Shown here piece after piece: positions 1,975-63,929 of a stretch of 64,000 bases of DNA (position 1 is its first letter; each line of letters opens with the position of its first letter). Position numbers and translations under genes: made by a program. The stretch comes from a virus. Where the stretch lies: positions 13,540-77,539 of the IMG/VR virus record IMGVR_UViG_3300042874_000422; one strand, 5' to 3'. The notes under the pieces were generated by a model. It saw nothing but the letters and a program-made list of their open reading frames with translations. It did no database searches and was not told where the DNA came from.

Positions 1975-2919
1975 TCACGGCATCACCAGCTTCGAGAGCC
2001 AGCCCGGCGTCGAGCGGCGCGCCTCTTCGCCGAGGCGCGCTGGATCGATATACACGCCCATGCCGGCGAGCCCTGGCAGGTTCGCCATCTTGTGACCGGT
2101 GATCGCGGCGATCTGGTAGGGCGTCAACCCCGCGACCATCCGCCACGTCACGAACGTGTTGCGGAAGATGTGCGGGTGCATGTGCTCCAGCCCGCACTTC
2201 TCGGCACGACGCTCGACGATCTTGTAGATCGACACGAGCGAGAGCCCCTCGCCGACGTTGTAGTCGAGCCGCCCCGTGCCGCGCGCGATCTTGCGATGCA
2301 GCGATCGGAACACCGAGCCGGTGGTGACCTTCTGCTTGCGCAGCCAGGCTCGCCATGGCGCGAGCGCGGCGACGGCGGTGTCGGAGAGCGGAACCGGGTA
2401 GAGCGTGTCGCCCGAGCCCTTGATCGGGACGGGCGCGACAGGGTAACCTTCTCGGGCGTTCTTGATCGTTTCGAGGGTCATGCCTTGGAGCGACATCCGA
2501 CGCATGCCGGTCTCTAGGCCGACGACGAACATCGCCCGATCGCGCAGGTCGATCGGCGAGCCGGCGGCACAGGTCGCGAGCAGCGTGATGGCTTCGTCGT
2601 GGGTCAGGGCGCGGCGCGGCGCTTTGTCGTCGTCGGGCGCAGTCTGCACGACGGCGAAGTGAAGCTCGGGCTGGTTCTCCTTCTTCGCCCACCACGAGCT
2701 GGCGTGCGCGAGCGCCGCCATGATGCGGTTCGCGCTCTGCGGCTTCATGCGCTCCAGCAAGTGGTTGTAGAATTCCTGGGCTCGGTAGCGCGTCCACCCC
2801 GCTGGGTTCGTGCCGGCGAAGTCGATCCACAGGTCGATGTCGCGCAGGTAGTCGGTGCGGGTCTTCTTCGACAGCCGCAAGCTCGTCTTGACGATCTGGT
2901 GCAGGATGGTGTCGGCCAT
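1975..2919 (-). CDS. tyrosine recombinase/integrase (XerC-like)
   Basis: Catalytic motifs TGMRR (R), IKG (K), HPHIFR (HxxR), TGH, GVY (Y); N-terminal SAM-like region. Confidence 0.9.
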   Translation of the reverse strand: MADTILHQIVKTSLRLSKKTRTDYLRDIDLWIDFAGTNPAGWTRYRAQEFYNHLLERMKPQSANRIMAALAHASSWWAKKENQPELHFAVVQTAPDDDKAPRRALTHDEAITLLATCAAGSPIDLRDRAMFVVGLETGMRRMSLQGMTLETIKNAREGYPVAPVPIKGSGDTLYPVPLSDTAVAALAPWRAWLRKQKVTTGSVFRSLHRKIARGTGRLDYNVGEGLSLVSIYKIVERRAEKCGLEHMHPHIFRNTFVTWRMVAGLTPYQIAAITGHKMANLPGLAGMGVYIDPARLGEEARRSTPGWLSKLVMP

Positions 2920-2923
2920 GGGG

Positions 2924-3463
2924 CTACTTCCCTTTGGGGGAATCATCTTTCTCGATCGTTTTCTTGAGCAGCCACTGCGCGGCTGTGTGGAAGATGACGA
3001 TCCCCTCGGGCTTCATGAAGCCCGGTGCGGCGACGCTTCCACCTTCTTTGAGCTTGTTGATGATGTCGCTCGCGTTGAGCTGATCAAATGGGCCTTGCCA
3101 CAAGATCGGTACGACACCGCAGCACGCGGGCCGTGTTGTCGCATCTGACCAACGATGCGTGTTGAACAGCGAGAAGCGCTTCTCTTTGAGATCGTATCGG
3201 CGCTGAATGCCGGTGCCCCACCACTCACCGAAGTGGCTACCAGGCCCGAGCTTGAGCAGCTCCTCCTTGTGCTCGGCGACCCATCGAGCAAAGCCAAAGT
3301 TGTCGCCATCGGGTCCGATCCATTGTGATCGCGAGCCCGCGAACACTTCGGTCATCGTGTCATTGACGTAGACCTGGCCGTTGGTGCCGTCGATCTTCTC
3401 GGTGACGACGACCTCGCGCGAGTAGCGCGCGATCTTGGGAAATTCAACGAATGGTGGAAGCAT
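2924..3463 (-). CDS. RNA ligase (Rnl2-like adenylyltransferase domain)
   Basis: FPKI, motif I TEKIDGTN, GEWWG.GIQ, EGIVI. Confidence 0.85.
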   Translation of the reverse strand: MLPPFVEFPKIARYSREVVVTEKIDGTNGQVYVNDTMTEVFAGSRSQWIGPDGDNFGFARWVAEHKEELLKLGPGSHFGEWWGTGIQRRYDLKEKRFSLFNTHRWSDATTRPACCGVVPILWQGPFDQLNASDIINKLKEGGSVAAPGFMKPEGIVIFHTAAQWLLKKTIEKDDSPKGK

Positions 3464-3488
3464 AGAATCCTTTTACAACGAGGGTCCG

Positions 3489-3665
3489 TCACTTGCCGCG
3501 ATAGCGGCGAGCGGGGCGTACCGGCACCGGCTCGTGTCCGAGCGCAGGCGCGACGATTTGCTCGATGATGCTCGCGATCGAGACGTTGCGCGCCTTGGCG
3601 TACGCTCGCAGGTGCTCGTACAGCGGGCCGGGGATGCTGATGTGGCAGCGGTTCTTGTCGCTCAT
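3489..3665 (-). CDS. ribbon-helix-helix (Arc/CopG-like) regulator
   Basis: HISIPGPLYEHLRAYAKARNVSIASIIEQIV; ATG at 3665. Confidence 0.7.
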   Translation of the reverse strand: MSDKNRCHISIPGPLYEHLRAYAKARNVSIASIIEQIVAPALGHEPVPVRPARRYRGK

Positions 3666-3967: not shown

Positions 3968-4367
3968 GCTTGTAGAGCGCTTCGAGCAGCTCGATCGCGT
4001 CAGCGAAGTCGACGCCTCGGTTGGTTCCGTGGTTCGGATCTGCCGCGATGCTGGAGTGGATGTTTCGCGAGCGCGCGTAGAGCACGTCGATGCAATCAAG
4101 CACGCCCTTCTGCCAGCCGGGCCCGCCGATCAACGTCATGTTGGTTGGATCGAGGTTGATCTGCCGCTGGCGCCACGTGCGGCGCTCGCGCCACAGGTGC
4201 GCGCTGACGACGCCGATGCCGACACCGAGCACCATCGCGACGATCGTCGGCCACGGCTCCAGCAGAACGCGGTCAGCCACGTATGCGATGGCGATGACGC
4301 TCAGCCACAGCGCGAGCTGCGTGATCACGTAGCGCGTGCGGGTCTTCGCGAACCAGGTGGGCGTCAT
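3948..4367 (-). CDS. membrane protein (2 TM)
   Basis: MTPTWFAK... with two TM helices; coupled to the AlkB-like gene. Confidence 0.55.
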   Translation of the reverse strand: MTPTWFAKTRTRYVITQLALWLSVIAIAYVADRVLLEPWPTIVAMVLGVGIGVVSAHLWRERRTWRQRQINLDPTNMTLIGGPGWQKGVLDCIDVLYARSRNIHSSIAADPNHGTNRGVDFADAIELLEALYKREVARG

Positions 4368-4948
4368 GGCGTGTAGTTCCGGTAGGTGAGAGAGATCCGC
4401 GTCGTCATCGGACGATCGCCTTTGGGGATGCGGTGTTGGTGAGTGCGCTGCATGCCTGGCGGCATGACGAAGATCGAGCCGTGCTCCAAGAGCTGACGCT
4501 GTTCGTGCGGGATGACGCCGGTCTGCTCCTTCTCGCGCCACCAGATCTCGCGAGGCTGCCCGAACGAGACCACCGCGATCGGGTGCTCGTGGTTCATGCC
4601 GGGCGAATCGTCGGAATGCCAGCCCAGCTGCATCGCTGCGTTGTCGTAGCGGTTCAGGAAGCAGACGTTGTACGCGAACACGTCGCGCATCGCGCCGTCG
4701 AGCCCACCGATGTCGTCGCGGTTGAGCTGGTGCTGGATGTCGGCGACGATTGGCGAGTACGGGACCGGCGTGTACGTGCGAACGCCGCGACCTTCGCCGT
4801 AGGTGTACGTCTCGGTGCTCGCCGACATGAAGCACTCCAGCCGTGCGTCGGTCACCTGGATCCACGGCGTGCTCGCGAGCACGTCTTCGAGCTTGATGTC
4901 GCGAAACCCAGGGCGGTAGTAGATCGGTTTTCTGATCAGGTAGTTCAT
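4364..4948 (-). CDS. AlkB-like 2OG-Fe(II) dioxygenase
   Basis: YTYG, CFLNRY, WHSDD (HxD), HQHRIPK (H), RISLTYR. Confidence 0.9.
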   Translation of the reverse strand: MNYLIRKPIYYRPGFRDIKLEDVLASTPWIQVTDARLECFMSASTETYTYGEGRGVRTYTPVPYSPIVADIQHQLNRDDIGGLDGAMRDVFAYNVCFLNRYDNAAMQLGWHSDDSPGMNHEHPIAVVSFGQPREIWWREKEQTGVIPHEQRQLLEHGSIFVMPPGMQRTHQHRIPKGDRPMTTRISLTYRNYTP

Positions 4949-5253
4949 CGTTTGGCCCTCGCGACGATCTCGGCGACCTCTGCGATCGTGTAGAGCCGCT
5001 CGTTCTCGTCGGGTTCTGGGATTCGGAACGGCTCGATGCTGTTCTTGCCGTTGAAATAGGTCCACTTTCCGTCGCTGCTCACGCTCGCGAGCCTCGTTGC
5101 GAATGTGGAGCCCTCTAGGATGAAGTAGTCACCTTCGCGGATCTCATGCGTGCCGCAGTAGAACTGCTCCGCGACCGCATCGAGGCGCACGCGCTCGGCG
5201 AGATCGTTCAGGCGGTCTCGTAGCTCGGCGATCTCTTCTTCCAGCTTCGTCAT
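4945..5253 (-). CDS. hypothetical protein
   Basis: MTKLEEEIAEL..., coupled at both ends. Confidence 0.55.
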   Translation of the reverse strand: MTKLEEEIAELRDRLNDLAERVRLDAVAEQFYCGTHEIREGDYFILEGSTFATRLASVSSDGKWTYFNGKNSIEPFRIPEPDENERLYTIAEVAEIVARAKR

Positions 5254-5628: not shown

Positions 5629-5896
5629 ATGTCAGCCGCTCGTCGATGAACGTGAAGCGCGGGACCGGCTTGAAGCTGTTGGCCGTGAAGCGCGGGACCG
5701 GCTTGAAGTTGGCCACGATCTCGTGAAACTCTTCCTCGTCGCGGATGTTGATCACACCGTGCGCCAGGCTGACGTAGACGACATGCGGGCGATCTTCCGT
5801 GGGCCCGTTGGTCGACATGCGAGCGACGAACAGCACGCGGTACAGCCCGCCCTTGTAGTGACGGTAGACGCCGGGCTTGGTGGGGACGGTGATCAT
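5618..5896 (-). CDS. DUF1653-like protein
   Basis: PGVYRHYKGGLYRV...VVY.SL...R..EEF...PRF. Confidence 0.8.
   Translation of the reverse strand: MITVPTKPGVYRHYKGGLYRVLFVARMSTNGPTEDRPHVVYVSLAHGVINIRDEEEFHEIVANFKPVPRFTANSFKPVPRFTFIDERLTYED
5651..5708. repeat. tandem duplication with 33-bp period inside the DUF1653 gene
   Basis: CGTGAAGCGCGGGACCGGCTTGAAG at 5651 and 5684, giving FKPVPRFT twice. Confidence 0.85.
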
Positions 5897-8572: not shown

Positions 8573-8805
8573 TTGCCCCTCCGGTCGCGATCGTTGAGGT
8601 ACTTCTCGACGGACTGGTAGCCCATCGCCTTGGCGACCTCCGCGTCGGGCGGGCGCGAGATCACCTTGCAGGTGACCTCGTTGCCGTTGACGTGCGGGTA
8701 GGCCGCTTGCACCATCTCGTCGGCGCGACGATCGGTGAGATCGAAGCCGTCCTCGACCCACGTCTCGTCCATCGTGACGGTGAGGGTCCACGTGTATTTC
8801 TTCAT
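8569..8805 (-). CDS. hypothetical protein
   Basis: Coupled small ORF. Confidence 0.6.
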   Translation of the reverse strand: MKKYTWTLTVTMDETWVEDGFDLTDRRADEMVQAAYPHVNGNEVTCKVISRPPDAEVAKAMGYQSVEKYLNDRDRRGK

Positions 8806-9296
8806 GGCAGCTCCAGCACGAGAACTTGAAGGATGTTGCGAGCGATGGATTCGATGACGTGATCGGCGTCGGCACCGAGCACGAGCGCGTAGTCGCCGTA
8901 GCCCGACGACAACTTGCTCTCACTGACGAGCGCGATGCCGGCGGTTTGCAGCTGGATCTTGATCGTCCGCTTCATCGCTTCGACGCGAGCGGTGATCGCG
9001 GCTTGCCCGGCGACCCGATCGGCGAGCTGGCGCGCGACGATCAGCGCGCACCGCTCGCGGTTGGTGGTGGGCGACGTCTCGACGCAGCTCGTGCGATCGT
9101 GGTCGGGCACGAGCATCAGCAGAAACTGCCGGACGTCGGGCGAGCGGTGGATCAGATCGCTGATCGCCTGGTTGCGCTCAGCCCGCGCTAGCCGGCGCAG
9201 CTCCTTGCGGTGGGCGAGGACAGCGAGCAGATCGCGGTCGGTCAGATCACCGACGGTCTTGGCTTCGTGCTCGTGGGTTTGATCGTTCTTGGTCAT
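8802..9296 (-). CDS. hypothetical protein
   Basis: Coupled ORF. Confidence 0.5.
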   Translation of the reverse strand: MTKNDQTHEHEAKTVGDLTDRDLLAVLAHRKELRRLARAERNQAISDLIHRSPDVRQFLLMLVPDHDRTSCVETSPTTNRERCALIVARQLADRVAGQAAITARVEAMKRTIKIQLQTAGIALVSESKLSSGYGDYALVLGADADHVIESIARNILQVLVLELP

Positions 9297-9342
9297 GGTC
9301 TTGGACCTGGCATCTTCAGGACGAGTAGGTCAGCTCTCGCCG

Positions 9343-9430
9343 ACGACGGAAGGGTAGTCACCGTTGCTCCCGTCGTTTCGCCGCGCACCGAGGGGACACA
9401 CCCCTGCGTAACCCCGGTGCGAGCGACGAA
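9343..9430 (-). ncRNA. candidate structured RNA (two hairpins) containing the antisense of the left-arm leader motif
   Basis: Minus-strand stems TTCGTCGC/GCGGCGAA, GCACCG/CGGTGC, ACGCA/TGTGT and ACGACGG/CCGTCGT; contains GGGGTGTGTCC (9394-9404). Confidence 0.5.
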
Positions 9431-10540
9431 CTAGCTGCGGCGGCGGCGCCGGACCTTGAGGATTTTGGAGACGAGCGTGGCCTTGCCGCCGGCCATCTTC
9501 GAAGCTCCGACGATCTTGAGATGCGCCGAGGCGTACTTGCGCAGATCTTCGATCGGCTGCTCCATCAGCATGGCCGGCGACATGCGGGCGAACTTCGCAG
9601 CCTTCGGGGCGGCGGGCTTGCCGGCGGGCTTGCCGGCGACGATGCGGGGCGCAGCTTTGACCTCGGTCTTGGTCTTCGCGGGCTCGGGCGTCGCACCGTT
9701 GCTGAGCGCGTCGTAGTCGACGGCGGGCGTGTTGTCGTGCTCGTCCTGGTCCTCGCCCTCGACATCGCCGCCCCACTCTTCGTCGTCCGCGTCGGACGTA
9801 TCGACGTCCACCGACATCGTGGTGCTCGGCATGTACTCGCTGTCGCCCGCGCCGGTCCAGTTGCCGACGACAAGGTACTCGCAGACGCGCATCTTTTGGA
9901 ACAAGTGATCGTTGGGCACGCACACGACGTGCTCGGGATCGATGCGGCAGATGATCACGCGCTCGCTGAAGTTGTGAGCGTACTGCAGCGCGCCCACGTG
10001 CAGCCCCTGGTGACACGCGGTCGCCGGGTTGTCAGAGATCAGGTTGCGCGCCATCTTCACGACGCGACCGGGGCTGTTGTCGATCGTCCCCGAGTGAGCG
10101 TCCATGTAGTCGTGCTTGACGCCCTTGTACGCGAGGAACGTGCCGTCCGGCTCGATCGGCACACCGACGTGCTGCAGGAAAGCGTGCAGCTGCGTGCGCG
10201 ACTGGAACGAGGGATTCTTGTGGAGCCGCTCGTAGAACTTGAACAGCGGCTCCGGGCTCTCGCCAGCCGCCGCCATCGTGAAGATGCGGCGCGACAGCGA
10301 GTCCGGCAGCGGGACGCTGTCGTACGAGATCGTGCGACCGTCGACGACGAACTTGTCGCCCAGCCACTGCTGCAGCGAGCCGCTGAGCGTGACGAGCTTT
10401 TCGATGTCGCCCCACTGCTCGTCGAAGATCGCTCGCCGCAGCGTGTGGTACTGCGGCGTGCCGGCATGCACGGTGTGCGACTTGCCGGTGAGGAGGACGG
10501 TGATGCTCTCGTTGGTCATGGTGAACGGGATCGTTGACAT
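9431..10540 (-). CDS. rIIB: T4 rIIB-like protein with acidic then basic C-terminal tail
   Basis: LFKFYERLHKNPS, DGTFLAYKGV..DY.D.HSG..DNSPG, C..GLHVG...YA, IDPEHVVCVP.D....MRVCEY; adjacent to rIIA. Confidence 0.85.
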   Translation of the reverse strand: MSTIPFTMTNESITVLLTGKSHTVHAGTPQYHTLRRAIFDEQWGDIEKLVTLSGSLQQWLGDKFVVDGRTISYDSVPLPDSLSRRIFTMAAAGESPEPLFKFYERLHKNPSFQSRTQLHAFLQHVGVPIEPDGTFLAYKGVKHDYMDAHSGTIDNSPGRVVKMARNLISDNPATACHQGLHVGALQYAHNFSERVIICRIDPEHVVCVPNDHLFQKMRVCEYLVVGNWTGAGDSEYMPSTTMSVDVDTSDADDEEWGGDVEGEDQDEHDNTPAVDYDALSNGATPEPAKTKTEVKAAPRIVAGKPAGKPAAPKAAKFARMSPAMLMEQPIEDLRKYASAHLKIVGASKMAGGKATLVSKILKVRRRRRS

Positions 10541-10665
10541 GGGGCGTGTCCTTTCGTGTTTGCTGTGGTTGCTGTGCTCGCCGCAGATGCGGCAGCGTGT
10601 CGTGAGTAGCTCGTCGGGAATGAAAGCGTGGGACCTGTACCGGGCCATTGGTGATTCGTCGTCCA

Positions 10666-12747
10666 TTACGGCACGCTCTTGAACTGGACGACGTTGGCCG
10701 GGCTCGGCGCGAGCGCGCTGTCGAAGATCTCGATGTAGCGCGCCCACTCCTCGCGGACCTCGCGGGCCTCAGCGTTGTACGGGTCGCACCACAGCTCGGA
10801 GAAACCGGTGCGACGGAGCAGCGGGTACCGCTTCTTGATGTCAGCGTACGCGACCTTCGCGGCGCTCTTGTCCCACGTGTTGCCGCTGCGCTCGGCGAGC
10901 GTGCCGATGGCGCCCGAAATCTCGGACTTGATCGCCTTCTGAGCGTCGACCCAGCCGGTGAGCCATTCAACGATCGGGTGGTTCTCACCGAGCCGCTCGG
11001 TGACCCACTTGCAGGCCTTCGCGCCCGGCACCGACATGCCGCCGTAGTAGCTGTGGCGATCGTCGCGCGGGTTGGCTCGCCAGTGCAGCGCGATCAGCTC
11101 GATGTTCTCGGGCGTGAGCAGATCTTCGAGGAACGCCTCGCGCCACTTCTCGTACGTGACGCCTTCGAGCGTGGCCTTGTCGACGGGCTTCTTCTCCGTC
11201 GTCTTGTAGCCGTAGACCGCTGGCATCGTGACGCCGAACGCATTCGCCAGCTGGCGATCGGACGTGTAGTGCCGGAAGAAATCGCTGTGGTGCGGCTTGA
11301 AGCCCTCGATGATCACCCAGACGTCGTCGGCCGTCGGGATCCGCGTGACCGCGTTCCAGTTGTCGCTCCACGGCGCGCAGAACGAGGATTGCGTCGTGTC
11401 GAGCACGAACATGCGTGCGCGGTGCTTGGGGTTGGTCTTGCGCTTGGGCTCGACGTACGGCGCGTTCCAGTGCCGCGTCGACAGCAGCTCGATCTTGACG
11501 CCGACGAGCCCGCTGGCGACGAGCGCCGCGTCGAGCGAAGCTCGCAGCTCCTCGGGCGTCTTGGTCTGCGAGCGCACGACGTAGTCGTCGTGACCGAACA
11601 TGTAACCGCCGAGATCCTTGCCGGTGTCGTCGATCAGGAGGACCGTCGAGTCGGTGACGAGCAGGCGCGTGCAGGCCGACTTGTTGTGGATGATCGAAAA
11701 GTCATCGTAGGTGTACGTGACCTTCGCGAACCCCTCGGCGTACGGCTTCCACTTCTCGGGCAGCGGCAGATCCATCTTCGCCAGCACCTGCACGCGGAGC
11801 CGCGTTTCCCAGCCGGTGAACACGCCGGCCTCCAGCTGCTTGAGCGCATGCGTGACGAATTCGTCGACGAGCAGCGTGAACTTGCTCGCGAGCGCGGCCT
11901 TGGTCGCGGGGTTGTACTTCAGCTCCTCGCGGGACGCCGACATCGCGACCTCGCCGATCCCAAACTTCAGCTGGCCCGACACCGAACGGAGGCACGCGGG
12001 GATCGTGCGCGGGTCGAGCGCGTCGAGAGAGATGCGGTACGGGACGCAGCCCATGATCGCGATCCAGTCGCCGCCGCCGGGCGTGATGACGCCGGCCTCC
12101 AGCACCGTCTGCTCGTCGGGCAGCGCCGGCAGCTCGATGTTGATCGCGGGGCGCGGCGTGAAGTGACGGAACAGCCGCTTGGCGGTCCGCTGGAATTCGT
12201 AGATGTCGCTGTGGCGCACAGCGATCTGGATCTCGACACCGGTCTCGGTGGGCTCGCACGCGGTCTCGTCGAGCAGGTTGATCGCACCCTTTTCGCTCTC
12301 GTCGAGCACCGCAACGTACGTGCGCCGCATGCCGCCGTGCCACGAGACGATCGTGAAGCTGTCGGCGTACGCGAAACCGGACTTGCTGCCGATTCCCAGC
12401 TGGCCCACGACCTCGTTGCTGTCGCGCTTGGTGCTCTTGCCGTACTGCGTGTAGACGGAGAACACGTCCTCGTGCGAGAGCCCGGGACCGAAGTCACGGA
12501 TCCGCAGCGTGGCGTCGTCGTCGTCCGGCAGCGTGACGCTGATCGGCAGCTCGGGCTTGCCGATCGAACGGTGGGCGTCCCAGGCGTTCGCGCTGTACTC
12601 GCGGAGCACCGCGAGCACCTTGTCGGTGTACAGCGTGTCGCGGAGGATGCCCATGATGTGGGCGCTATCCTCGACGGAGATTTCGAAGCTAGCGGTCGCT
12701 TGAGCGCCGCCGATCAGCGTGGCGCGATTGTTCTGGTGAGGGATCAT
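10666..12747 (-). CDS. rIIA: T4 rIIA-like protein (N-terminal GHKL/Hsp90-like ATPase)
   Basis: LYTDKVLAVLREYSANAWDAH, IRDFGPGLS, YGKSTKRDSN..VGQLGIGSKSGFAY. Confidence 0.88.
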   Translation of the reverse strand: MIPHQNNRATLIGGAQATASFEISVEDSAHIMGILRDTLYTDKVLAVLREYSANAWDAHRSIGKPELPISVTLPDDDDATLRIRDFGPGLSHEDVFSVYTQYGKSTKRDSNEVVGQLGIGSKSGFAYADSFTIVSWHGGMRRTYVAVLDESEKGAINLLDETACEPTETGVEIQIAVRHSDIYEFQRTAKRLFRHFTPRPAINIELPALPDEQTVLEAGVITPGGGDWIAIMGCVPYRISLDALDPRTIPACLRSVSGQLKFGIGEVAMSASREELKYNPATKAALASKFTLLVDEFVTHALKQLEAGVFTGWETRLRVQVLAKMDLPLPEKWKPYAEGFAKVTYTYDDFSIIHNKSACTRLLVTDSTVLLIDDTGKDLGGYMFGHDDYVVRSQTKTPEELRASLDAALVASGLVGVKIELLSTRHWNAPYVEPKRKTNPKHRARMFVLDTTQSSFCAPWSDNWNAVTRIPTADDVWVIIEGFKPHHSDFFRHYTSDRQLANAFGVTMPAVYGYKTTEKKPVDKATLEGVTYEKWREAFLEDLLTPENIELIALHWRANPRDDRHSYYGGMSVPGAKACKWVTERLGENHPIVEWLTGWVDAQKAIKSEISGAIGTLAERSGNTWDKSAAKVAYADIKKRYPLLRRTGFSELWCDPYNAEAREVREEWARYIEIFDSALAPSPANVVQFKSVP

Positions 12748-12965
12748 GGGGTGTGTCCTTCAGAGCGTGAGTGGTTGTGGTGGGAGTTACTTGGGGAGGA
12801 CTTCGTACGTGTGCCCGTTGGTCCGGAACTTGGTGCCGGGCTGCAACGTCTGCGAGAACGCATGCGACGACGCGGCGCCAGGCGTGAGGTACTGGTGACC
12901 TCGTGCGCCCGAGTGCCGGTCGTACGTGAGCGTGGTCTCGACGCCGTCGATGAGGACGCGGTACG

Positions 12966-13394
12966 TCACGGCGTGTGGTTGACGAGCGCGTGCTCGCTCC
13001 AGAACTTGGTCGACGCCTCGACGTCCTTGCAGCCGGGATCGGCCGGCTCCTGCGGCGTCGGCGGGCCACCGAACGCGGTGTAGAGCACGCACGGCTGGCC
13101 GTCGTGCGGACCGGCGATCACCGTGACCTTGCGCGTGGTGCGGATGCCGTTGCGCTGCACGATGCGCGAGAACCACGCTCGCGTGCCACGGACGCCGTAC
13201 GTGACTTCGTCCTCGGTGACCGGCGCGTCGCCCATGACCGGACCGAACAGCGCGCACAGCACGGCGCCCAGGCTCTCGGGCAGCTCGATCGTCTCGATGA
13301 AAAACCCGGTGCGCCCGACGAACAGGGCGAACACGTGTTCGACCTGCGCGGGCGTGAGCCCGTGGTCGAGGTGACTGTCCTTGTGCTTGATCAT
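12966..13394 (-). CDS. hypothetical phage protein
   Basis: MIKHKDSHLDHGLT...LYTAFGGP..PQEP...FWSEHAL. Confidence 0.65.
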   Translation of the reverse strand: MIKHKDSHLDHGLTPAQVEHVFALFVGRTGFFIETIELPESLGAVLCALFGPVMGDAPVTEDEVTYGVRGTRAWFSRIVQRNGIRTTRKVTVIAGPHDGQPCVLYTAFGGPPTPQEPADPGCKDVEASTKFWSEHALVNHTP

Positions 13395-13807
13395 GGTTGC
13401 TTGCTCGCTAGACGCCAGATGGTTTCGTTGCCGCTCGCCCGCCACCACAATCGGAGTGCGTCCTTCGCAGCCATGCTGAGCGTGCGGAAGTTGTACGCGA
13501 CGGGTACGACAGTGATGCCGGTGACCTCGGTGACAGCCGCCGCGAACGTCGACTGCCAGCGTTGATCGTGCGCCGCCTCGATCGTCGCGGCGTGCGCAAG
13601 CTCGTGGATCAACGTGCCCAGCTCGTCGACGAACGAGACGCCCCGGTAGATCACGAGCCGCTGCTGCAGCGGCCAGCACGTGCCGAGGCGATCGGCGTGC
13701 TGCTTGTCGCTGATCTCGATCTTGGTCTCCGAGAGATCCCGCCGCCACGCGCGGAGCGTGACCCAGCGGGACGCCCACGTGCGGAGCCCTTGTTCACGGG
13801 TGATCAC
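13391..13807 (-). CDS. SprT-like zinc metallopeptidase
   Basis: LGTC, TLIHELAHA (HExxH), AHDQRW. Confidence 0.7.
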   Translation of the reverse strand: MITREQGLRTWASRWVTLRAWRRDLSETKIEISDKQHADRLGTCWPLQQRLVIYRGVSFVDELGTLIHELAHAATIEAAHDQRWQSTFAAAVTEVTGITVVPVAYNFRTLSMAAKDALRLWWRASGNETIWRLASKQP

Positions 13808-14646
13808 GACTTGCCGCCCTTCAGCCGGCCACGTCCGGCGGGGAGTCCTGCGCGCTTGCCACCGAGCGACACGCGGCCACCGGCCTCGCGGCCCGCGTCG
13901 TAGCCCGAGCGGTTCGACACCTGCCCGACGGACGCCACGGTCCCCCAGCCCTTGCTGTAGGTGGCGTACTCGCGATCGACCTCCTCGCGGTCGCGCTCGA
14001 CGATCGCGAGAGCTTTGCTGCGGTCCACCGAGCCGCCGTCGCCGCTGCTCGCGCTCGCGTCACCGGCCGGCTCGCGCTCGTCGTTGACGTGCGTGTGAAC
14101 GGGCGCCGCTTCGCGGGCCTGCCGTTCGGTCCAGATGCGCTCCGCGATCCGCTGCGAGCAGCCGACGCGGAAAGCGTTGCGGTACGCGCGGGCGGTCGCC
14201 CACTGCGGGGCGCTCTCGGCCTCGGCCAGCTCGTCGATCTGGCGCCACAGGTACTGGCACGTGTAGCGCCAGGTCTGGATCGCACTCTCGCGGCCGAACC
14301 CACGCACGTCGCTGTACTTGCGCCCGCTCTTGTTCCAGTCGCGAGCGTGCGTCCAGTGCATGCGGACGCCGAGATCCTTGGCGACAGCGAGCGCGATGGT
14401 CTCGCGCCACGCCACACGCTTGCGACCGACGAGCGGTTGGTCGGGCTCCAGGCGCGCCGACTTCTCGATGGGCTCGGGCGGAAGGTCGGGCTGATCGACG
14501 CGCAGCTGCGCCTCGGTCAGCTGGTACTCGGCGATCAGCGCGGTCGCGCGACCGGCGGCGGCGGCAGCTTCGTGCTCGCTGCCGGCACCTTCGGACAGCG
14601 CGAGCAGTTTGCGCACGCGGTCGATGATTTTCTCGATGTTCGACAT
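13804..14646 (-). CDS. DUF2786-domain protein
   Basis: IIDRVRKLLALS....EHEAAAA...A..LIAEY; RNAFRVG; GYDAGREAG. Confidence 0.8.
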   Translation of the reverse strand: MSNIEKIIDRVRKLLALSEGAGSEHEAAAAAGRATALIAEYQLTEAQLRVDQPDLPPEPIEKSARLEPDQPLVGRKRVAWRETIALAVAKDLGVRMHWTHARDWNKSGRKYSDVRGFGRESAIQTWRYTCQYLWRQIDELAEAESAPQWATARAYRNAFRVGCSQRIAERIWTERQAREAAPVHTHVNDEREPAGDASASSGDGGSVDRSKALAIVERDREEVDREYATYSKGWGTVASVGQVSNRSGYDAGREAGGRVSLGGKRAGLPAGRGRLKGGKS

Positions 14647-14916
14647 GGGGGTGTGTCTCGGGGTGTTGGGTGTGTCGTGTCGGCGGTTCGCGGCGAACCA
14701 CGCGATCGGCTGCACGGGTATCAACCGTGCGCAGCTGCAGACTGCAGAGCGCGTGGCGCGCCGCCAGCCGTCGTCGGCGACGGGGCGAGGGTTAGTCGAG
14801 TGCTGCGATGCCCCACGCTGTCGCGCGGTGGAGCGTGAATCCGAGGCGGGTGATCACGGCGCACGACTTGCGACCGTTGAGCACGGTGTGAACGTGTTTG
14901 AGGCGGGCCATGGATG

Positions 14917-15600
14917 TCACTTCGGGTTGATGGTCAGCGACAGCGAAGAGTTGTTGTAGGCGCACGGCAGGAGAGTACGAGCGCGCAGCTCGCTTGCGCT
15001 CGGGAACCGCTGACACGCGAACGCGGTCTGCCGTAGCTGCACGGGCGGGCCGTCGTCGTCCCAGACGTACAGGCGGTACTGCAGACCGGCTGCAGTCAGC
15101 GTGACCTCGATCGGACCGGGGAACGTCACGGCGAGCCCGGTCACCGTCGGTGTCAAGCGGACGAAGTCGTTCTGGTTGCCGAGGTAGAGATCCGGCGCGC
15201 TGCTGTCGGGATCCCACATGGCGCCCTGGTTCGTCGTCGAGATCGACACCACGACGTCGGTGATCACGTACGTGCGGGGGAACGCCGCGACGCAGGCGCC
15301 GCCGACGCAGAGCGTGTCGCCCGTGCAGGTGTCGTTCGCGGCGGTGCAGGCCGGCGCCCCGCAGTCGCTCGCGCAGTTGGCGGGCGACTCCGAGCCTTCG
15401 CACGTGCCGTCGCCGCAGACCGGGCCACCCGGCACGCAGTCGACGCCGCACGTATCGGGCGTCTCGGCATCGGCGCACGCGCCGTCGCCGCAGACGCCGC
15501 CGTCGATCGCAGCGTCGGTGCCGCCGTCGACGGTGTCGTCGTCGCCCGTGTTCGTGCCGCCGCATGCGGCGATGACTGCCAGCAAAATGATCCGCTTCAT
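14917..15600 (-). CDS. lipoprotein with myxobacterial-type Cys-rich CGDG repeats
   Basis: Signal and lipobox MKRIILLAVIAAC; VCGDGAC..AET..TC..DC twice. Confidence 0.75.
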   Translation of the reverse strand: MKRIILLAVIAACGGTNTGDDDTVDGGTDAAIDGGVCGDGACADAETPDTCGVDCVPGGPVCGDGTCEGSESPANCASDCGAPACTAANDTCTGDTLCVGGACVAAFPRTYVITDVVVSISTTNQGAMWDPDSSAPDLYLGNQNDFVRLTPTVTGLAVTFPGPIEVTLTAAGLQYRLYVWDDDGPPVQLRQTAFACQRFPSASELRARTLLPCAYNNSSLSLTINPK

Positions 15601-15617
15601 GGTCGTGTCCCCGTCCC

Positions 15618-15914
15618 CTAGTTGGTGTTGGTGTTGTCGGTTTCGACGGCGGGCCTGCAGTTGCTGCAGTCGCACATCGCGGCGATCTCGGCGCCCACGT
15701 TGGGGCTGCTCGCCAGCGAGTCGATGATCGTGAACGCCTCGGCGAGCACGCGGGCGTGCGCCGCGACCTTCAGCGCACGGTCCTCACGGGTCTCGCCCGG
15801 TTCGAACGCGGTGTAGAGCAGGCGCTCGATCTCGGCGCTCGCGCGCCGTGCGTTGTCCGTGGCCTGGACGAAAAGCCCGCCGGGCGACAGATCGGTGATG
15901 ATGACAGTCGGCAT
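15618..15914 (-). CDS. hypothetical protein
   Basis: Preceded by both the leader motif and the promoter motif. Confidence 0.6.
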   Translation of the reverse strand: MPTVIITDLSPGGLFVQATDNARRASAEIERLLYTAFEPGETREDRALKVAAHARVLAEAFTIIDSLASSPNVGAEIAAMCDCSNCRPAVETDNTNTN

Positions 15915-15978
15915 CGTGGGGTGTGTCCTTTCAGAGTGACAGACGCAGAGTAGGGGCAGGGTTTGACAGACAATCGTC

Positions 15979-16455
15979 TCAGATCGGGCAGTCGCCGTCG
16001 GCGTCGGCGCTGGCGCGGTCGTACTCGATCGAGCCCGACTCCTCGGGGTGGATCTCGCCTTCCGGGGCGCCGCCGCTGCTGGCCAGGAACCGGTCGTAGC
16101 TGTCGTTACGGTCAGAGAGCGCCGTGGACACCGGCTGCGCGAAGATCGCCGCGTCCCGTGCCGCGAGTAGCTCCTGCACGTGGGCGGCGAGCGCCAGCCG
16201 CACCGACTCGCTCGTGGCGAGCACCGTGCGCAGCTGGGCGATCACCGCGTCCTGTTCGCCGATCCGCTTGCGCAGTGCCTGCGCGTCGGCCTGTGCCGCG
16301 TTGCGCTCCTGCTCGCAGCGCGAGATCAGCTCGCCGGCCAGCGTCGCCGTCGATTGCGCCGCCGGCTGCGTACCTCGCGCGGGCTCTTTGGTGCGGTCTC
16401 GCTTGTCGTCGGCTGCGGGCGTATCGGTAGCGGGTTCTTTGCTCTTCTTACTCAC
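15979..16455 (-). CDS. coiled-coil hypothetical protein
   Basis: Heptad-like central region; start uncertain. Confidence 0.55.
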   Translation of the reverse strand: MSKKSKEPATDTPAADDKRDRTKEPARGTQPAAQSTATLAGELISRCEQERNAAQADAQALRKRIGEQDAVIAQLRTVLATSESVRLALAAHVQELLAARDAAIFAQPVSTALSDRNDSYDRFLASSGGAPEGEIHPEESGSIEYDRASADADGDCPI

Positions 16456-16804
16456 GGTTAAAGCCCTCAAATTCGAGTGTGTTGTAGATAAAGGATGAGA
16501 GTGTGCCGCAATCTAGTCGCCCGGTTTCGCCGTCAAGTAGTGTATGAATGGCTCGCCCTACCGCTTGCCAGCCTTCACCCATAACGTGGTCATCACTTAC
16601 GCGTGACTCGTAGCGTCGCTTATGCTCGTCGGCGTACCTAGCCCAGCCTTCTAACATCTCAACGATTGAGCGTTCGAAATCGCGCGGTACCTTCAGCGCG
16701 GCAATGTGGCGAGTCTGCCACCCCGAATCGTTTGGCATGACGAGACCGTCAGCGGGGTTAATGAACGTCGGATTACGCAATGCATGTGAGTAGCTAGTCG
16801 ACAT
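16448..16804 (-). CDS. hypothetical protein (visibly lower-GC cassette)
   Basis: Leader motif directly upstream; more A/T-ending codons than neighbouring genes. Confidence 0.7.
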   Translation of the reverse strand: MSTSYSHALRNPTFINPADGLVMPNDSGWQTRHIAALKVPRDFERSIVEMLEGWARYADEHKRRYESRVSDDHVMGEGWQAVGRAIHTLLDGETGRLDCGTLSSFIYNTLEFEGFNRE

Positions 16805-16874
16805 GGGGTGTGTCCTTCGGGTCGAGTGTGTGAAAGGGGAGGGGCTCGCAGCCCCGGTGGGTTGTTGTCGTCGG

Positions 16875-18671
16875 CTACGCCTTCGGGGCGAGGACGTCCA
16901 GCTCCAGCAGCGACGCCCGGAGATCGCCGTCGCTGCACAGGCCGCGCAGCGATTCCATGGCGACCGCGATACCGTCGCGGACCTTCGCGGCGTACGTGCC
17001 GCCGAGGACCTCGGCGTGCTTGCTGGCGCGGGCGCCCAGCTCGGACAGCTGCGCGAGGAACGCCGCAGCGCGGGCGGGCGTCAGCTGCGAACGCTTGGGC
17101 GACGCCTTGAGACCGGCTTGGTGCTCGGTCTCGATGTCCGCGAGCACCGCGTTGACCTCGTCGGCCAGCGACTTGGTGAGACCGGCGCGGAGCGCGTCAC
17201 ACGTCACCATCGGCATGGGCACGCGCCAGCGTCCCCACTTGCGCTCGACGGCGTCGTACAGCCGCTGCGCGGCGGCGGCGTGCTTGGCGGGGATGTACCA
17301 GCCGTAGTGCTTGATCCCGTGCCACTGGCCCGTGATGATCTCCTGCAGCCACGCCGTGACCTGGCCCGCTTCGTAGACTTCCTCGTCGCGGCGGCGGTTG
17401 TACTCGGTCTCGACGCGAGCCCGGATGTTCTCGTCACCCTCGACGGTGATCGAGCCGTCCACCCAGACCGTCGCCGTGGCGAGAATGGTGCCGGCGTGCT
17501 CGCCGACTTCACCGTGCGACGGCTGCTGAATCGTCCACCGCGACAGGTACGAGCGCGGCATGCCGTCGATCATCACGACGCGGTGCTTGCGCTGGCCCTT
17601 GACCATACGCTCGGGCTTGGCGATCAGACCGTGGCGGTTTTCGCCGGTCACGACGAGCCCGGCGAGCGCCTTGGGCGACGTCGGCGCCTTGACCCACGCC
17701 TCGGGCAGCTTGGCCTCGGCGAGCACCGCGAGCATTTCGCTGCGCTTGAATTCGCCCAGACCGTCCCAGGCGATGGCGACGCCCGACGACACCGCGCCAG
17801 CGACCGCCATGATCTCGCCGCTGCGCATCGCATCGCGGACGCTGCGCATCGTCTCGGTCTCGCCGCTGACGATCGGCTTGGCCCAGTGCGCCTTGACCTC
17901 GGCGGGCGTCATCTGGTCCACCGACTTGCCGCTGGTCACGCGGTGAACGATGCCGGGACCGACCGGCAGCGCCGCTGCCTCGGGGATGACCGTGACGACG
18001 AGCGCGGCGATCTGCGCCTCGGTGTAGCCGTACGAGCCGCGCAGCGTGCTCTTGTAGCTGTCGGCGGTCGCTTGCTTGACGCCGTTTGCGAGCGCCGTGA
18101 CGTAGCCGGCAGCCGTCGAGAAACCGACGCCGCGCAGCTGTCCACCGGCCATGCTGCCGGCGCCCTGCACTGCCGCGTTGCTGCTCGCCTCATGGCCGAT
18201 GCCCTGCAGCGTGTCGACGAGCGCGTCACCCGTCGGTGCCGGTACCGTGGTGTCGACCGCGACCGGCGCGAGCGCGGGGCGCCGCACGAGCGACGGGCGC
18301 TCCTCGATCGCGTCGGCCAGCGTCGCCCAGATGCGGACCCAGAGCAGCGCGAACATGGCGACGAACGCCTGGCGCTGCAGATCGGCGCGGCGCGTCTTGA
18401 ACACGTCGCGGAGTGCCACGCGCGTCGGGTGGTCCTTGTCGGCCAGACCGTTCGCGAGGCAGAGCGCGGCGACCTTCTGCGCCGCAGCGTCGAGCGCCTC
18501 GATCGTGGTCGCGGCGCGGAGCATGTCGGTGCCGGTCGCGAGCGGCGAGACCGGCGCCGGGCGCGGCGTCACGACGGGAGCCGCCGCCTTGGGCGCGGTG
18601 GCGGGCTTGGTGTTGGGGACCGAGTCAAGCTCGATCATGCTGAAGCGGTCAGCGGTGTCGTCGGTGGCCAT
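16875..18671 (-). CDS. large hypothetical early protein
   Basis: ATG at 18671 preceded by the leader and promoter motifs. Confidence 0.7.
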   Translation of the reverse strand: MATDDTADRFSMIELDSVPNTKPATAPKAAAPVVTPRPAPVSPLATGTDMLRAATTIEALDAAAQKVAALCLANGLADKDHPTRVALRDVFKTRRADLQRQAFVAMFALLWVRIWATLADAIEERPSLVRRPALAPVAVDTTVPAPTGDALVDTLQGIGHEASSNAAVQGAGSMAGGQLRGVGFSTAAGYVTALANGVKQATADSYKSTLRGSYGYTEAQIAALVVTVIPEAAALPVGPGIVHRVTSGKSVDQMTPAEVKAHWAKPIVSGETETMRSVRDAMRSGEIMAVAGAVSSGVAIAWDGLGEFKRSEMLAVLAEAKLPEAWVKAPTSPKALAGLVVTGENRHGLIAKPERMVKGQRKHRVVMIDGMPRSYLSRWTIQQPSHGEVGEHAGTILATATVWVDGSITVEGDENIRARVETEYNRRRDEEVYEAGQVTAWLQEIITGQWHGIKHYGWYIPAKHAAAAQRLYDAVERKWGRWRVPMPMVTCDALRAGLTKSLADEVNAVLADIETEHQAGLKASPKRSQLTPARAAAFLAQLSELGARASKHAEVLGGTYAAKVRDGIAVAMESLRGLCSDGDLRASLLELDVLAPKA

Positions 18672-19249
18672 GGGGTGTGTCCTTCCGGGTGAGGGATCTT
18701 GAGTGTGGGGTGGATGGTAGGGGTGGGGTCTGACGTCAGGCTGGCGCGCGGTGGCCCCGTCGCGAGCGCGACCAGCGCCGCGTACAGCCGGCGGGCCGCG
18801 CGACACGCGGGGCACGCGGGGAACGTGGGGGCCGGCGTGGGGCGTGCCGCCGGGCGGGCTGCGAGCGCGGCACGGACGACCGTGCGGACAACCGTGCGCA
18901 GCGTCGCGCGGACCGTCGCCGCGACCTTGCGCGCCGTGCGGGCGAGCGCCGCTGCAGCGCGGGCACGGACGAGCGCCGCCGCCCGAGCGAACGCCCGAGC
19001 GAACACGCGGCCGATTTCGGCCAGCGCGAGCATGCCCTGGCGGGCGCGGTTGCGGGGCGTGCGGGGCAGCGCCGCCACGGGCAGCGGGAGCCCTGCTTCG
19101 ACCATGCGGAGCCGGTGCAGCGCGCGGCCCGACGCAGCGGCCAGGCGCCATGCCCGGGGCTCCGTGGCGGCGTTTTCCTCGGCGCGGATGGCTGCCGCGT
19201 ACTCGCGGGCCAGGCGCCGCAGGAGCCGGCTGTGTTGTTTCTGGGTCAT
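18635..19249 (-). CDS. Ala/Arg-rich protein, first gene of the left-arm string
   Basis: Leader motif upstream of ATG 19249; low complexity; CPAC near the end. Confidence 0.5.
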   Translation of the reverse strand: MTQKQHSRLLRRLAREYAAAIRAEENAATEPRAWRLAAASGRALHRLRMVEAGLPLPVAALPRTPRNRARQGMLALAEIGRVFARAFARAAALVRARAAAALARTARKVAATVRATLRTVVRTVVRAALAARPAARPTPAPTFPACPACRAARRLYAALVALATGPPRASLTSDPTPTIHPTLKIPHPEGHTPWPPTTPLTASA

Positions 19250-19289
19250 GGGGGTGTGTCCGTCCCGAGGGGTTGCCCCGGTGAAAACG

Positions 19290-19600
19290 GTTGTATCGCG
19301 ATGCCCAGAATGCAGATACAAGTATTTCGTAAGTGCGTGATATTTCAGGCGAAAAACAGGGTATTTTTCCTGTTCTGGGGGGTCTAAAAACGTATTACAG
19401 GGGCCCCGAAAAACGGCCGATCCCCGGGGATCTGACTCGGATCCCTATCCGAGTCGACTCGAATGAATCCAAGTAGTTAGCCCAACCCCTTCACTGAAGG
19501 CCGAAATCCGACCGGTTCCGATCGGATCCGACCCGCCGTGCGGGCCGGTTCCGAGCAGGTTCCGAGCGGGCGCGCGGGCGGGGGGCCGCAAGCTCGCAAA
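19290..19600. promoter_or_regulatory. non-coding divergence region with AT-rich tract, palindromes and short repeats
   Basis: GATCCCCGGGGATC (19419-19432), GACTCGGAT/ATCCGAGTC (19434-19455), three GGTTCCGA copies. Confidence 0.6.
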
Positions 19601-21196: not shown

Positions 21197-21246
21197 GGCC
21201 TCAGAAGATACCAGACGTGTCGGACCCTTGTGTTACGCACGTCAAC

Positions 21247-34569: not shown

Positions 34570-34606
34570 TCGTATGCTTTGTCGGTACCACGAGGGTCCG
34601 ACAGCT

Positions 34607-34810: not shown

Positions 34811-34832
34811 TCAGACGATCCTACATCGAGGG

Positions 34833-35117
34833 TCAGACACCCGGCAGCGGGGCCCTTGGTGGCCAGCTCCACGTGCCGGGGTGCTTGTTCTCGTAGGCGC
34901 GTTCGCTGATGCCGAGCCGGTAATTGTCGAACAAGGCGCAGCTGGTGCCCAAGCCGTGCTCTGCGTCGGTGGGTTCGAAGAACACGTGCAGGTTCACCCG
35001 GCCATCGACGAGGATCGACGTGATCAGCGCGGGGCGCGACACGATCGGCTGCGTCGGATCAGAGACGAAGTGATACAGGACGAGGCGGCAGGGCGAGGGC
35101 AACATCTGCACGAGCAT
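34833..35117 (-). CDS. hypothetical protein
   Basis: PS..R.VLY...PA.IT....VNL.VF...TWSWPPR pattern. Confidence 0.6.
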   Translation of the reverse strand: MLVQMLPSPCRLVLYHFVSDPTQPIVSRPALITSILVDGRVNLHVFFEPTDAEHGLGTSCALFDNYRLGISERAYENKHPGTWSWPPRAPLPGV

Positions 35118-41520: not shown

Positions 41521-42231
41521 TTAGACAACGCTCCTCTTGATGAGGCCGTAGAGGTACGTCTTGACGTCCGCGAACGTCAGAGCCGCACCGTTGTCAGCAG
41601 CCGCCTGGCTGATGACGATCGGCGCCTCGGGCTGGAACGACATCTTGAAGCCGAGGTTCTCGCGGAGGTCGATCGGCAGGACCATCGCGTTGCGATCACG
41701 GGGCGACGGGACGCCGTTCTGCGCCAGCTCGAATGAGCTGGTCGTGGCGAACACGTAGTAGCCGTGACCCTGCGGGTAGTCCTGCATCACGCCGTACGTG
41801 TAGACCTTCCCGTTGTACGAGAATTCCAGGTACGTCACGCGATCGAACTGGAACAGCGTGTTGAGGATCGGCGGGGCCGAGAGCGCGCCCGAGCCGTCCG
41901 CGAGGACAGGCTGCGTCGGGTTCGCCGTCGGGCCGCGCATGACGCGGACCATCTTCACGCCGATGCCGTACACGTACATCTCCCACGACTGCGGCAGACC
42001 GGAGTCGCCGTTACGGGGGACGTTGGTGTCGACGCGCGTCGAGGCGCGCGTGCCGCCCGGGATGGGCTGCGAGCGGCCAGCCGTGAACGCCTCGACCGGC
42101 GAGGTCTGGGTGTTCGTGATCTGGACGGTGCTGTAGAGCTTGTCGTCGATCCAGTCGCTGATCGCGACCGTCTGCCCGTTGGGCAGGGTGAGGGTCGTGG
42201 TTCCGGGTGCTACGCCAACAGTTCCAGCCAT
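41521..42231 (-). CDS. candidate major capsid protein, single-jelly-roll type
   Basis: LYST, DTN.....LP....VYGI, NGVPSP.....LPI.L.....F...F, C-terminal VK.YL.GL..R.V; RBS AGGAG, own terminator, strongly biased codons. Fold inferred. Confidence 0.65.
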   Translation of the reverse strand: MAGTVGVAPGTTTLTLPNGQTVAISDWIDDKLYSTVQITNTQTSPVEAFTAGRSQPIPGGTRASTRVDTNVPRNGDSGLPQSWEMYVYGIGVKMVRVMRGPTANPTQPVLADGSGALSAPPILNTLFQFDRVTYLEFSYNGKVYTYGVMQDYPQGHGYYVFATTSSFELAQNGVPSPRDRNAMVLPIDLRENLGFKMSFQPEAPIVISQAAADNGAALTFADVKTYLYGLIKRSVV

Positions 42232-57349: not shown

Positions 57350-57377
57350 TCCAGCGTGGTAACACGCGGGTCCGACG

Positions 57378-61531: not shown

Positions 61532-61560
61532 ATGTCAGACCCCCCGTGTAAGGTCGTCGC

Positions 61561-63856: not shown

Positions 63857-63929
63857 CGGCTGATGTCGGACCCCTGTTGTAGAACCCTTCACACACGTTC
63901 CCTCTGATCAGAGAAAAAGGAAAAAGGAA

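Follow-up and report, generated by a model that had tools for sequence, protein, structure and literature searches.

The early gene block and its shared leader

The sequence analysed belongs to a 77.5-kb IMG/VR virus record that has repeated termini and a G+C content of 64%; positions refer to a stretch of 64,000 nucleotides of this record, which we call the window. A block of minus-strand genes runs from about 19250 down to 9431, and its last two members are rIIA (10666-12747) and rIIB, whose identities were confirmed with PHROGs. Downstream on the same arm there are a tyrosine integrase-like gene (1975-2946, minus strand; phrog_1, E 4e-28) and a gene for an AlkB-like alkylated-DNA repair protein (4364-5065, minus strand; phrog_21963, E 1.8e-51).

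Allowing at most one mismatch, the sequence GGACACACCCC occurs seven times on the minus strand, rIIA and rIIB included, and each copy ends 0-3 nt before an ATG (Table 1). Over both strands this makes eight matches where 1.14 would be expected, a number reached in none of 100 shuffles, and the whole 77.5-kb genome held no copies beyond the seven on the minus strand and the one on the plus strand. The wider leader consensus is (G/C)AAGGACACACCCC-ATG, i.e. an AAGGA Shine-Dalgarno element with a conserved C/A-rich spacer, and the spacing of the AAGGA is the same as that of the AAGGAG sites of other genes. The original prediction had assigned eight genes to the set that could pair with an antisense downstream of rIIB. 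Complementarity holds for seven of them, while the eighth, with the variant leader GGGGACACGACC at 15600, has a poor hybrid energy (only -11.9 kcal/mol, against opening costs of about 13 kcal/mol) and is, on these calculated energies, not a credible target.

Upstream of the first leader gene, the segment 19300-19480 is likely the early promoter region. It looks AT-richer by eye, and a sigma-70 promoter scan found no site within it. N4-like hairpin promoters were also considered and rejected, there being no ORF of vRNAP size. Many leaderless gene starts are preceded, at a distance of about 10-25 nt, by a different motif, GACCC-N3-6-KKTA (often cGGACCC...TGnTA), with eight matches against 2.5 expected. 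It is probably a compact phage promoter that produces very short leaders, in which case a second class of genes would exist beside those with the shared leader.

Table 1. Positions in the window of the leaders, of the elements in the gap after rIIB and of the GACCC motif
Feature	Position	Strand	Description
Leader of the first gene of the series	19251..19261	-	exact GGACACACCCC; just downstream of the probable promoter region 19300-19480
Leader of the 598-aa gene	18672..18682	-	exact
Leader of the 118-aa gene	16805..16815	-	exact
Leader of the 98-aa gene	15918..15928	-	exact; 3 nt before ATG
Leader of the DUF2786/DUF7168 gene	14648..14658	-	AGACACACCCC
rIIA leader	12748..12758	-	exact GGACACACCCC
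rIIB leader	10541..10551	-	GGACACGCCCC; directly before ATG; pairs with the anti-leader through one G-U
rIIB	9431..10540	-	phrog_609 RIIB, E 6.9e-58; final leader-bearing gene of the operon; stop UAG at 9431-9433
Hairpin 1	9377..9430	-	MFE fold: 8-bp basal, 9-bp middle and weak 5-bp apical stem (ACGCA/UGUGU), GGGG tetraloop
Anti-leader GGGGUGUGUCC	9394..9404	-	complementary to all 11 nt of GGACACACCCC; apical loop formed by GGGG 9401-9404
Candidate type II hammerhead	9301..9383	-	RF02276; E 0.026-0.041 for the short stretch searched
Stem II, 3' strand GGC	9380-9382	-	from alignment and coordinate check
Core GAA (G12-A14)	9377-9379	-	GAAA at 9376-9379, with A15.1 at 9376
Stem III, A..U	9343-9376	-	9 bp; the second hairpin of the original prediction
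C17	9342	-	H17 position in the hammerhead alignment
Predicted self-cleavage site GUC/G	9341..9342	-	between C9342 and G9341
Stem I hairpin	9320-9341	-	6 bp
Core box CUGAAGA	9313-9319	-	fits CUGANGA
Extra U	9312	-	between A9 and G10.1
Stem II, 5' strand GCC	9309-9311	-	3-bp stem II, GCC/GGC
Pseudoknot	9304-9308 + 9327-9331	-	AGGUC tail with loop I GACCU; 5 Watson-Crick pairs
Next gene	8802..9296	-	164 aa; no family; no leader
GACCC-N3-6-KKTA sites	3474-3486, 34586-34598, 34822-34834, 57360-57372	-	
GACCC-N3-6-KKTA sites	21223-21235, 41766-41778, 61538-61550, 63869-63881	+	

The anti-leader hairpin downstream of rIIB

The sole reverse complement of GGACACACCCC in the genome is the plus-strand copy at 9394-9404, which in minus-strand RNA reads GGGGUGUGUCC and lies 27 nt after the rIIB stop codon, inside a hairpin. 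The sequence thus reads as originally described, with an exact antisense of the leader in a hairpin just past rIIB, and the region 9335-9430 does fold into two hairpins, as had also been claimed (-52 kcal/mol, z = -3.25). Reading the same copy as the leader of a plus-strand gene was rejected, since no start codon follows it. The complementarity to the ribosome-binding regions extends over 11 nt without exception for five leaders, and involves one G-U pair or one end mismatch for the other two. The GGGG loop of hairpin 1 has an unpaired probability of 0.94-1.00, and the remainder of the anti-leader lies in the weak stem. All leader-bearing genes are upstream of the hairpin, both here and in the related contig L020, and a full-length transcript carries one antisense against seven or eight leaders.

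As no U-tract (T-run) follows either of the two hairpins, neither is a classical intrinsic terminator, and a terminator scan of 9300-9430 gave no match. An Rfam scan at gathering thresholds found no family in the window; hairpin 1 is covered by no Rfam family either at these thresholds or in a permissive scan. Apart from the ribozyme match described below, the low-scoring matches of the permissive scan were dismissed as miRNA-type hairpin noise. Other GC-rich hairpins, of the form CCGGGG-loop-CCCC, occur between early genes on the minus strand (19400-19427, 19269-19281 and 16841-16857), and they share CACCGGGG...CCCCUCGG arms with hairpin 1.

A candidate type II hammerhead ribozyme

The second hairpin had been described as a stem-loop in its own right; it is instead stem III of what is probably a type II hammerhead. 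With permissive settings, an Rfam scan of the gap after rIIB matched RF02276 with 21.4 bits, and because this is under the gathering score of 37 the hammerhead had been missed in the first scan. The sequences GCGAAAC, GUC and CUGAAGA are present, as are the A-U closing pair, a stem II of 3 bp and a pseudoknot. Stem III is closed by the A15.1-U16.1 pair (A9376-U9343), and stems I and III end in loops, with stem II open and short, as in type II hammerheads. A short stem II, which commonly has as few as two pairs, together with a pseudoknot of at least four pairs between loop I and the bases immediately 3' of stem II is the signature of this type, and hammerheads between genes of phage operons have been described (PMC3088659). 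Besides its sub-threshold score, the candidate departs from RF02276 in a bulged U next to A9: the G10.1-C11.1 pair (G9311-C9380) requires U9312 to be bulged, and the covariance-model alignment takes "ug" as an insertion.

We also searched with a purpose-made descriptor that requires, in this order, GAAA, a stem III with a minimum of 4 bp, UH, a stem I with the same minimum, and CUGANGA. Its single match in the genome is the candidate site, and it matched one other site in 2.4 Mb, in an unrelated viral contig (L123; IMGVR_UViG_3300029260_000451, reverse strand, 3527-3574 in reverse-complement coordinates). This other site is a textbook type II hammerhead, GCC-GAAAC-stem III-GUC-stem I-CUGAUGA-GGC, and provides a positive control for the descriptor. 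Among 2000 dinucleotide shuffles of the genome, core and stems were found 119 times, 30 times also with stem II and 15 times also with the pseudoknot, so that the full descriptor arises at a rate of about 0.0075 per genome, with thresholds looser than the real site. In the X2 contig, a relative described below, the ribozyme differs only at N7, where CUGAAGA has changed to the canonical CUGAUGA, and in three loop bases of stem III; N7 is the one free core position, and all other core bases are spared by the variation. Taken on its sequence signature, the hammerhead is very probably real. None was found in the L018-type relatives. A hammerhead that cleaves in trans, with the leader as its substrate, was considered and rejected, as the leader has no NUH triplet.

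The AGG at 9305-9307, in the pseudoknot tail, is the only Shine-Dalgarno-like AGG before the AUG of the next gene at 9296. Because this AGG sits in the ribozyme strand and tail, the predicted ribozyme fold (stem II strand plus tail GCCAGGUC, 9304-9311) may mask or time the translation of that gene.

Conservation in relatives

The rIIB protein has many metagenomic homologues, and our comparison covers the loci that were retrieved. The sequence GGGGUGUGU is found downstream of rIIB in four relatives, namely L018 (rIIB identity 52%), L019/L020 (58%), L062 and the X2 contig (86%); L019 and L020 are two copies of one sequence, and sets that include the window comprise five sequences. The expectation that the antisense would be conserved is thereby borne out, as the motif persists after rIIB in all four relatives despite their divergence, and always at a hairpin tip, which also argues that the match to the leader is not due to chance. 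What had been expected of its length holds in part: the complement is exact over 11 nt in the window, but the relatives conserve only 9-10 nt, GGGGUGUGU(C), rather than 11-14. In L018, L019/L020 and L062 the motif appears as GGGGTGTGT about 65-70 nt after the rIIB stop codon, in flanks that are unalignable with the window. These three also carry the leader, as caaGGACACGCCCCC-ATG before rIIB, and L019/L020 has GGACACACCCC-ATG two times further upstream. Elsewhere in 2.4 Mb of DNA, the 12-mer tip pattern was present in only one unrelated contig.

The X2 contig (record 1) is a 12,735-nt bog-metagenome contig that was aligned over 9200-18580. Within hairpin 1 it shows eight differences from the window, two single-base deletions among them, and GCAGGGGUGUGUC is intact. 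Its middle stem has compensatory changes (A-U to G-C, plus one deletion per side), and an apical C-G pair has become U-G. All five sequences fold to a long hairpin with a GGGG apical tetraloop on a weak stem of 4-5 bp. The 3' strand of the tip, UGUG(U), is invariant, and the 5' strand is ACGCA, AUGCA, CGCA, UGCA or CAUA, pairing in every case. A frozen UGUG facing a partner strand that drifts fits a strand that has a second partner outside the hairpin. Leader and antisense are both invariant among the available relatives, and covariation between them is thus absent. In the L018-type relatives the tip hairpin lies inside a perfect helix of 16-18 bp, with one compensatory G-C to A-U change; such a helix would suit RNase III.

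The antisense hairpin is not universal, since the close relatives L016 and L017 have the leader but lack the hairpin in the sequence covered downstream of rIIB, a few hundred bases. Nor does the leader depend on the antisense, because more distant contigs have it too: GGACACACCCC-ATG or GGAG(G)ACACC-ATG precedes genes in L046 (reverse strand, near 5799), L056 (near 5253 and 10522) and L014 (8710, 9991 and 11504), whose rIIB identities are 40-46%. The ACAC-rich ribosome-binding context thus predates the antisense hairpin and has a wider distribution.

Further searches added no close relatives. An IMG/VR search with the rIIB protein gave none that were useful, a 16-mer of the leader gave 27 single matches in IMG/VR, which we attribute to chance, and a pattern of the L018-type scaffold gave 36, all by chance. 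Megablast against GenBank phages found no match, and tblastn found only distant rIIB genes with at most 38% identity. An RNAduplex screen of rIIB leaders against downstream regions at 40 loci was noisy, and its matches in L014 and L050, which fall inside coding sequence, were dropped. Among the RNA-seq runs listed, none contained the present sequence.

The X2 alignment also shows that whole pieces of the early operon have been exchanged (10534-10708, 12782-12849, 14856-15656 and 16370-16818). The X2 contig has 378 other bases in place of the rIIA-rIIB spacer, 125 bases in place of the lipoprotein gene whose leader is the odd one (14917-15600), and 174 bases in place of the 118-aa gene with its leader (16448-16815). 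Early genes act as interchangeable cassettes in this comparison, and the shared leader might be a recombination junction as well.

Energetics of leader pairing

The hybrid of the anti-leader with the consensus leader was estimated at -22.3 kcal/mol (an RNAup-style estimate for the tip). Opening costs are +0.04 kcal/mol for the loop, +8.3 for all 11 nt of the anti-leader and +1.4 to +5.1 for the leaders, so that local pairing is favourable, with a net energy of about -9 to -13 kcal/mol. Accepted pairs of small RNAs and their targets fall in a range that includes these values. Cofolding the entire hairpin 1 with the leaders is not favourable (-5 to 0 kcal/mol), and complete strand invasion of the hairpin was rejected on this ground. 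Since full opening is unfavourable, pairing would have to stay within the apical 18 nt, where there is little steric room for 11 bp. In a genome-wide duplex scan with the 18-nt tip, the leaders were not separable from the GC-rich background (64% G+C).

The ribozyme has its own competitor. In the MFE fold the base of hairpin 1 engages the ribozyme's GAA core and one strand of stem II in pairing. A fold compatible with the ribozyme costs 7.0 kcal/mol in stability, not counting the pseudoknot, which contributes about -5.4 kcal/mol. Given this cost and this gain, the base of hairpin 1 and the ribozyme are expected to compete.

A possible RNA switch for early-gene translation

Taken together, hairpin and ribozyme look like an RNA switch for early-gene translation. 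The 134-nt gap between rIIB and the next gene would be a two-part RNA module that closes the leader-bearing early operon. In its first part, the hairpin tip would present GGGGUGUGUC(C), the complement of the leader spacer and of the 3' edge of the Shine-Dalgarno element. The C-run of a leader, beside the AUG, would nucleate on the open GGGG loop as on a toehold, and the ACACA of the leader would then displace the ACGCA strand from its weak, G-U-rich stem with UGUGU. The resulting duplex of 10-11 bp would cover positions -1 to -11 of the target, within the footprint of the 30S subunit, and the effect would be less translation of the leader genes as a set, possibly with faster decay. Pairing could take place within the polycistronic RNA itself (in cis), or in trans once the RNA has been released.

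The second part would be the type II hammerhead, which begins within the base of hairpin 1. Since no U-tract follows either hairpin, transcription probably continues into the next gene (8802-9296). Cleavage after C9342 would split the rIIB message from that of the downstream gene, freeing the latter, and would leave the rIIB message with the anti-leader hairpin and stem III as a stable 3' end capped by a cyclic phosphate. The candidate hammerhead would thus offer a way to make the 3' end of the anti-leader RNA. Transcription through the gap, cleavage, leader pairing and repression are inferred from sequence and fold, and the "shut-off timer" of the original prediction is purely inferential. 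The reading that we prefer, at about even odds, is that an RNA directed against ribosome-binding sites lies at the end of the leader operon, that the ribozyme generates the 3' end of this RNA, and that it pairs with the leaders and lowers early translation.

One may also consider an alternative explanation in which hairpin 1 serves processing or stability or binds a protein, and no RNA-RNA pairing ever makes use of its match to the leader. It could be a protective 3' hairpin, a substrate of RNase III or a site where an RNA-binding protein reads the GGGGUGUG tip, with the ribozyme simply cutting the operon. This is the main rival and, although we think it somewhat unlikely, several observations agree with it: the hairpins are long, stable and conserved, with compensatory changes; RNase III typically acts on helices like the perfect one of 16-18 bp around the tip in the L018-type relatives; other spacers between early genes also contain GC-rich CCGGGG...CCCC hairpins; operon-cutting phage hammerheads are known (PMC3088659); and full strand invasion is energetically marginal. 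It does not explain, however, why two conserved 9-11-mers in one operon are exactly complementary (a coincidence with a chance of about 1e-5), nor why it is precisely the leader-complementary strand that is invariant.

On DNA, leader and antisense are the same 11-bp site, and the inverted copy lies exactly at the end of the leader-bearing block. They could therefore be, as the original prediction had offered as its alternative, a double-stranded site that a phage or host protein binds in either orientation, the inverted copy acting as a polar roadblock or boundary. Yet the leaders stand at a fixed 0-3 nt from the start codon with an AAGGA Shine-Dalgarno element at the usual spacing, which points to a role of the leader in RNA, and only 9-10 bp are conserved. 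Moreover, the inverted copy invariably occupies a hairpin tip, on stems maintained by compensation, which duplex DNA would not need, and a DNA site is for that reason less likely than a processing hairpin; we consider it improbable. It must also be said that the leader match was found post hoc, and that the ribozyme match falls under the Rfam threshold and is missing from the gathering-threshold scan. Chance, or a historical by-product such as an inverted leader copy generated by recombination, with the hammerhead-like motif as a false positive, nevertheless seems very improbable indeed: four relatives retain the core although their flanks have diverged, the stems show compensatory changes, shuffles speak against both the leader match and the ribozyme motif as random occurrences, and the variation in the X2 contig avoids every ribozyme core base that is constrained.

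Within the preferred reading, in which the anti-leader pairs with the leaders, a bolder version can be formulated, which we hold to be unlikely: an RNA counterpart of RegA, in which translation of rIIB licenses self-cleavage and an RNA of about 90 nt shuts off the leader regulon by the toehold. Ribosomes that terminate at the rIIB stop codon would open the basal stem that locks the GAA core and the stem II strand, because the 5' strand of this stem starts right after the stop codon. A further, putative 5' cut would release the RNA of about 90 nt, which would accumulate and repress the leader genes through pairing of its GGGG loop. If true, this would amount to a translation-counted timer for the switch from early to middle expression.

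Phages must switch their early genes off, and in the textbook case, RegA of phage T4, this is done by a protein. If the proposed pairing is real, an RNA that recognises a private ribosome-binding tag on the early gene set does the job of RegA by base pairing. Two elements are added here, namely the seed design, with an open GGGG loop beside a weak, displaceable stem, and the physical link of the anti-leader hairpin to a putative self-cleaving ribozyme. To our knowledge, the roles of bacterial hammerheads are still mostly unknown; making the 3' end of a regulatory RNA would, if confirmed, be a concrete one.

Comparison with known systems

RegA of T4 is a protein repressor that acts on the initiation regions of many early messages, rIIA and rIIB included. 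The logic of one repressor for many early messages is the same, but RegA is an RNA-binding protein and the candidate repressor here is an RNA; no RegA-like family was seen among the proteins searched, which represent part of the phage's genes. The c4 RNA of phages P1 and P7 is processed from the transcript that it regulates, and its exposed loops pair near a downstream ribosome-binding region. It resembles our element as a phage antisense RNA derived from the regulated transcript, with an exposed loop directed (here by prediction) against a ribosome-binding region. However, c4 is encoded upstream of its targets, RNase P sets it free, and it acts on the leader of one operon (icd-ant), whereas the phage module described here is at the 3' end, beside a ribozyme, and matches many gene starts. 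Neither sequence nor Rfam similarity of the phage element to c4 was found. In the gene 1.1/1.2 mRNA of phage T7, as reportedly described by Saito and Richardson in 1981, an unprocessed 3' end pairs with an upstream ribosome-binding site until RNase III removes it. The likeness is in the long-range pairing of a 3' end with an initiation region in an early phage message, tied to RNA processing; the difference is that in T7 processing relieves the inhibition and a single site is concerned.

Outside phages, the icaR mRNA of Staphylococcus aureus has a UCCCC in its 3'-UTR that pairs with the Shine-Dalgarno element of its own 5'-UTR (PMC3868564). Both systems have a 3'-UTR sequence complementary to the ribosome-binding region of the same transcript, with a block of initiation and cleavage proposed. 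In icaR there is one target in one gene, and the effect has been demonstrated experimentally; the phage module has seven near-identical targets, carries its antisense at a hairpin tip and has a predicted effect.

With the type II hammerheads of phage and prophage operons (RF02276; Perreault et al. 2011, PMC3088659) the candidate shares all core bases. It differs in its score below the cut-off, a stem III loop that is 20 nt longer, the extra U after A9 and its overlap with the base of an upstream hairpin, and its activity is only predicted here. Finally, the module resembles the bacterial small RNAs derived from 3'-UTRs (PMC9438474), which are likewise RNAs from mRNA 3' ends that direct a short seed against initiation regions, and UTR-derived small RNA candidates have been reported from phages (PMC10914365). 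As a rule RNase E frees such RNAs, and their 3' end is an intrinsic terminator, whereas in the phage module there is no U-tract and the 3' end would be made by a ribozyme.
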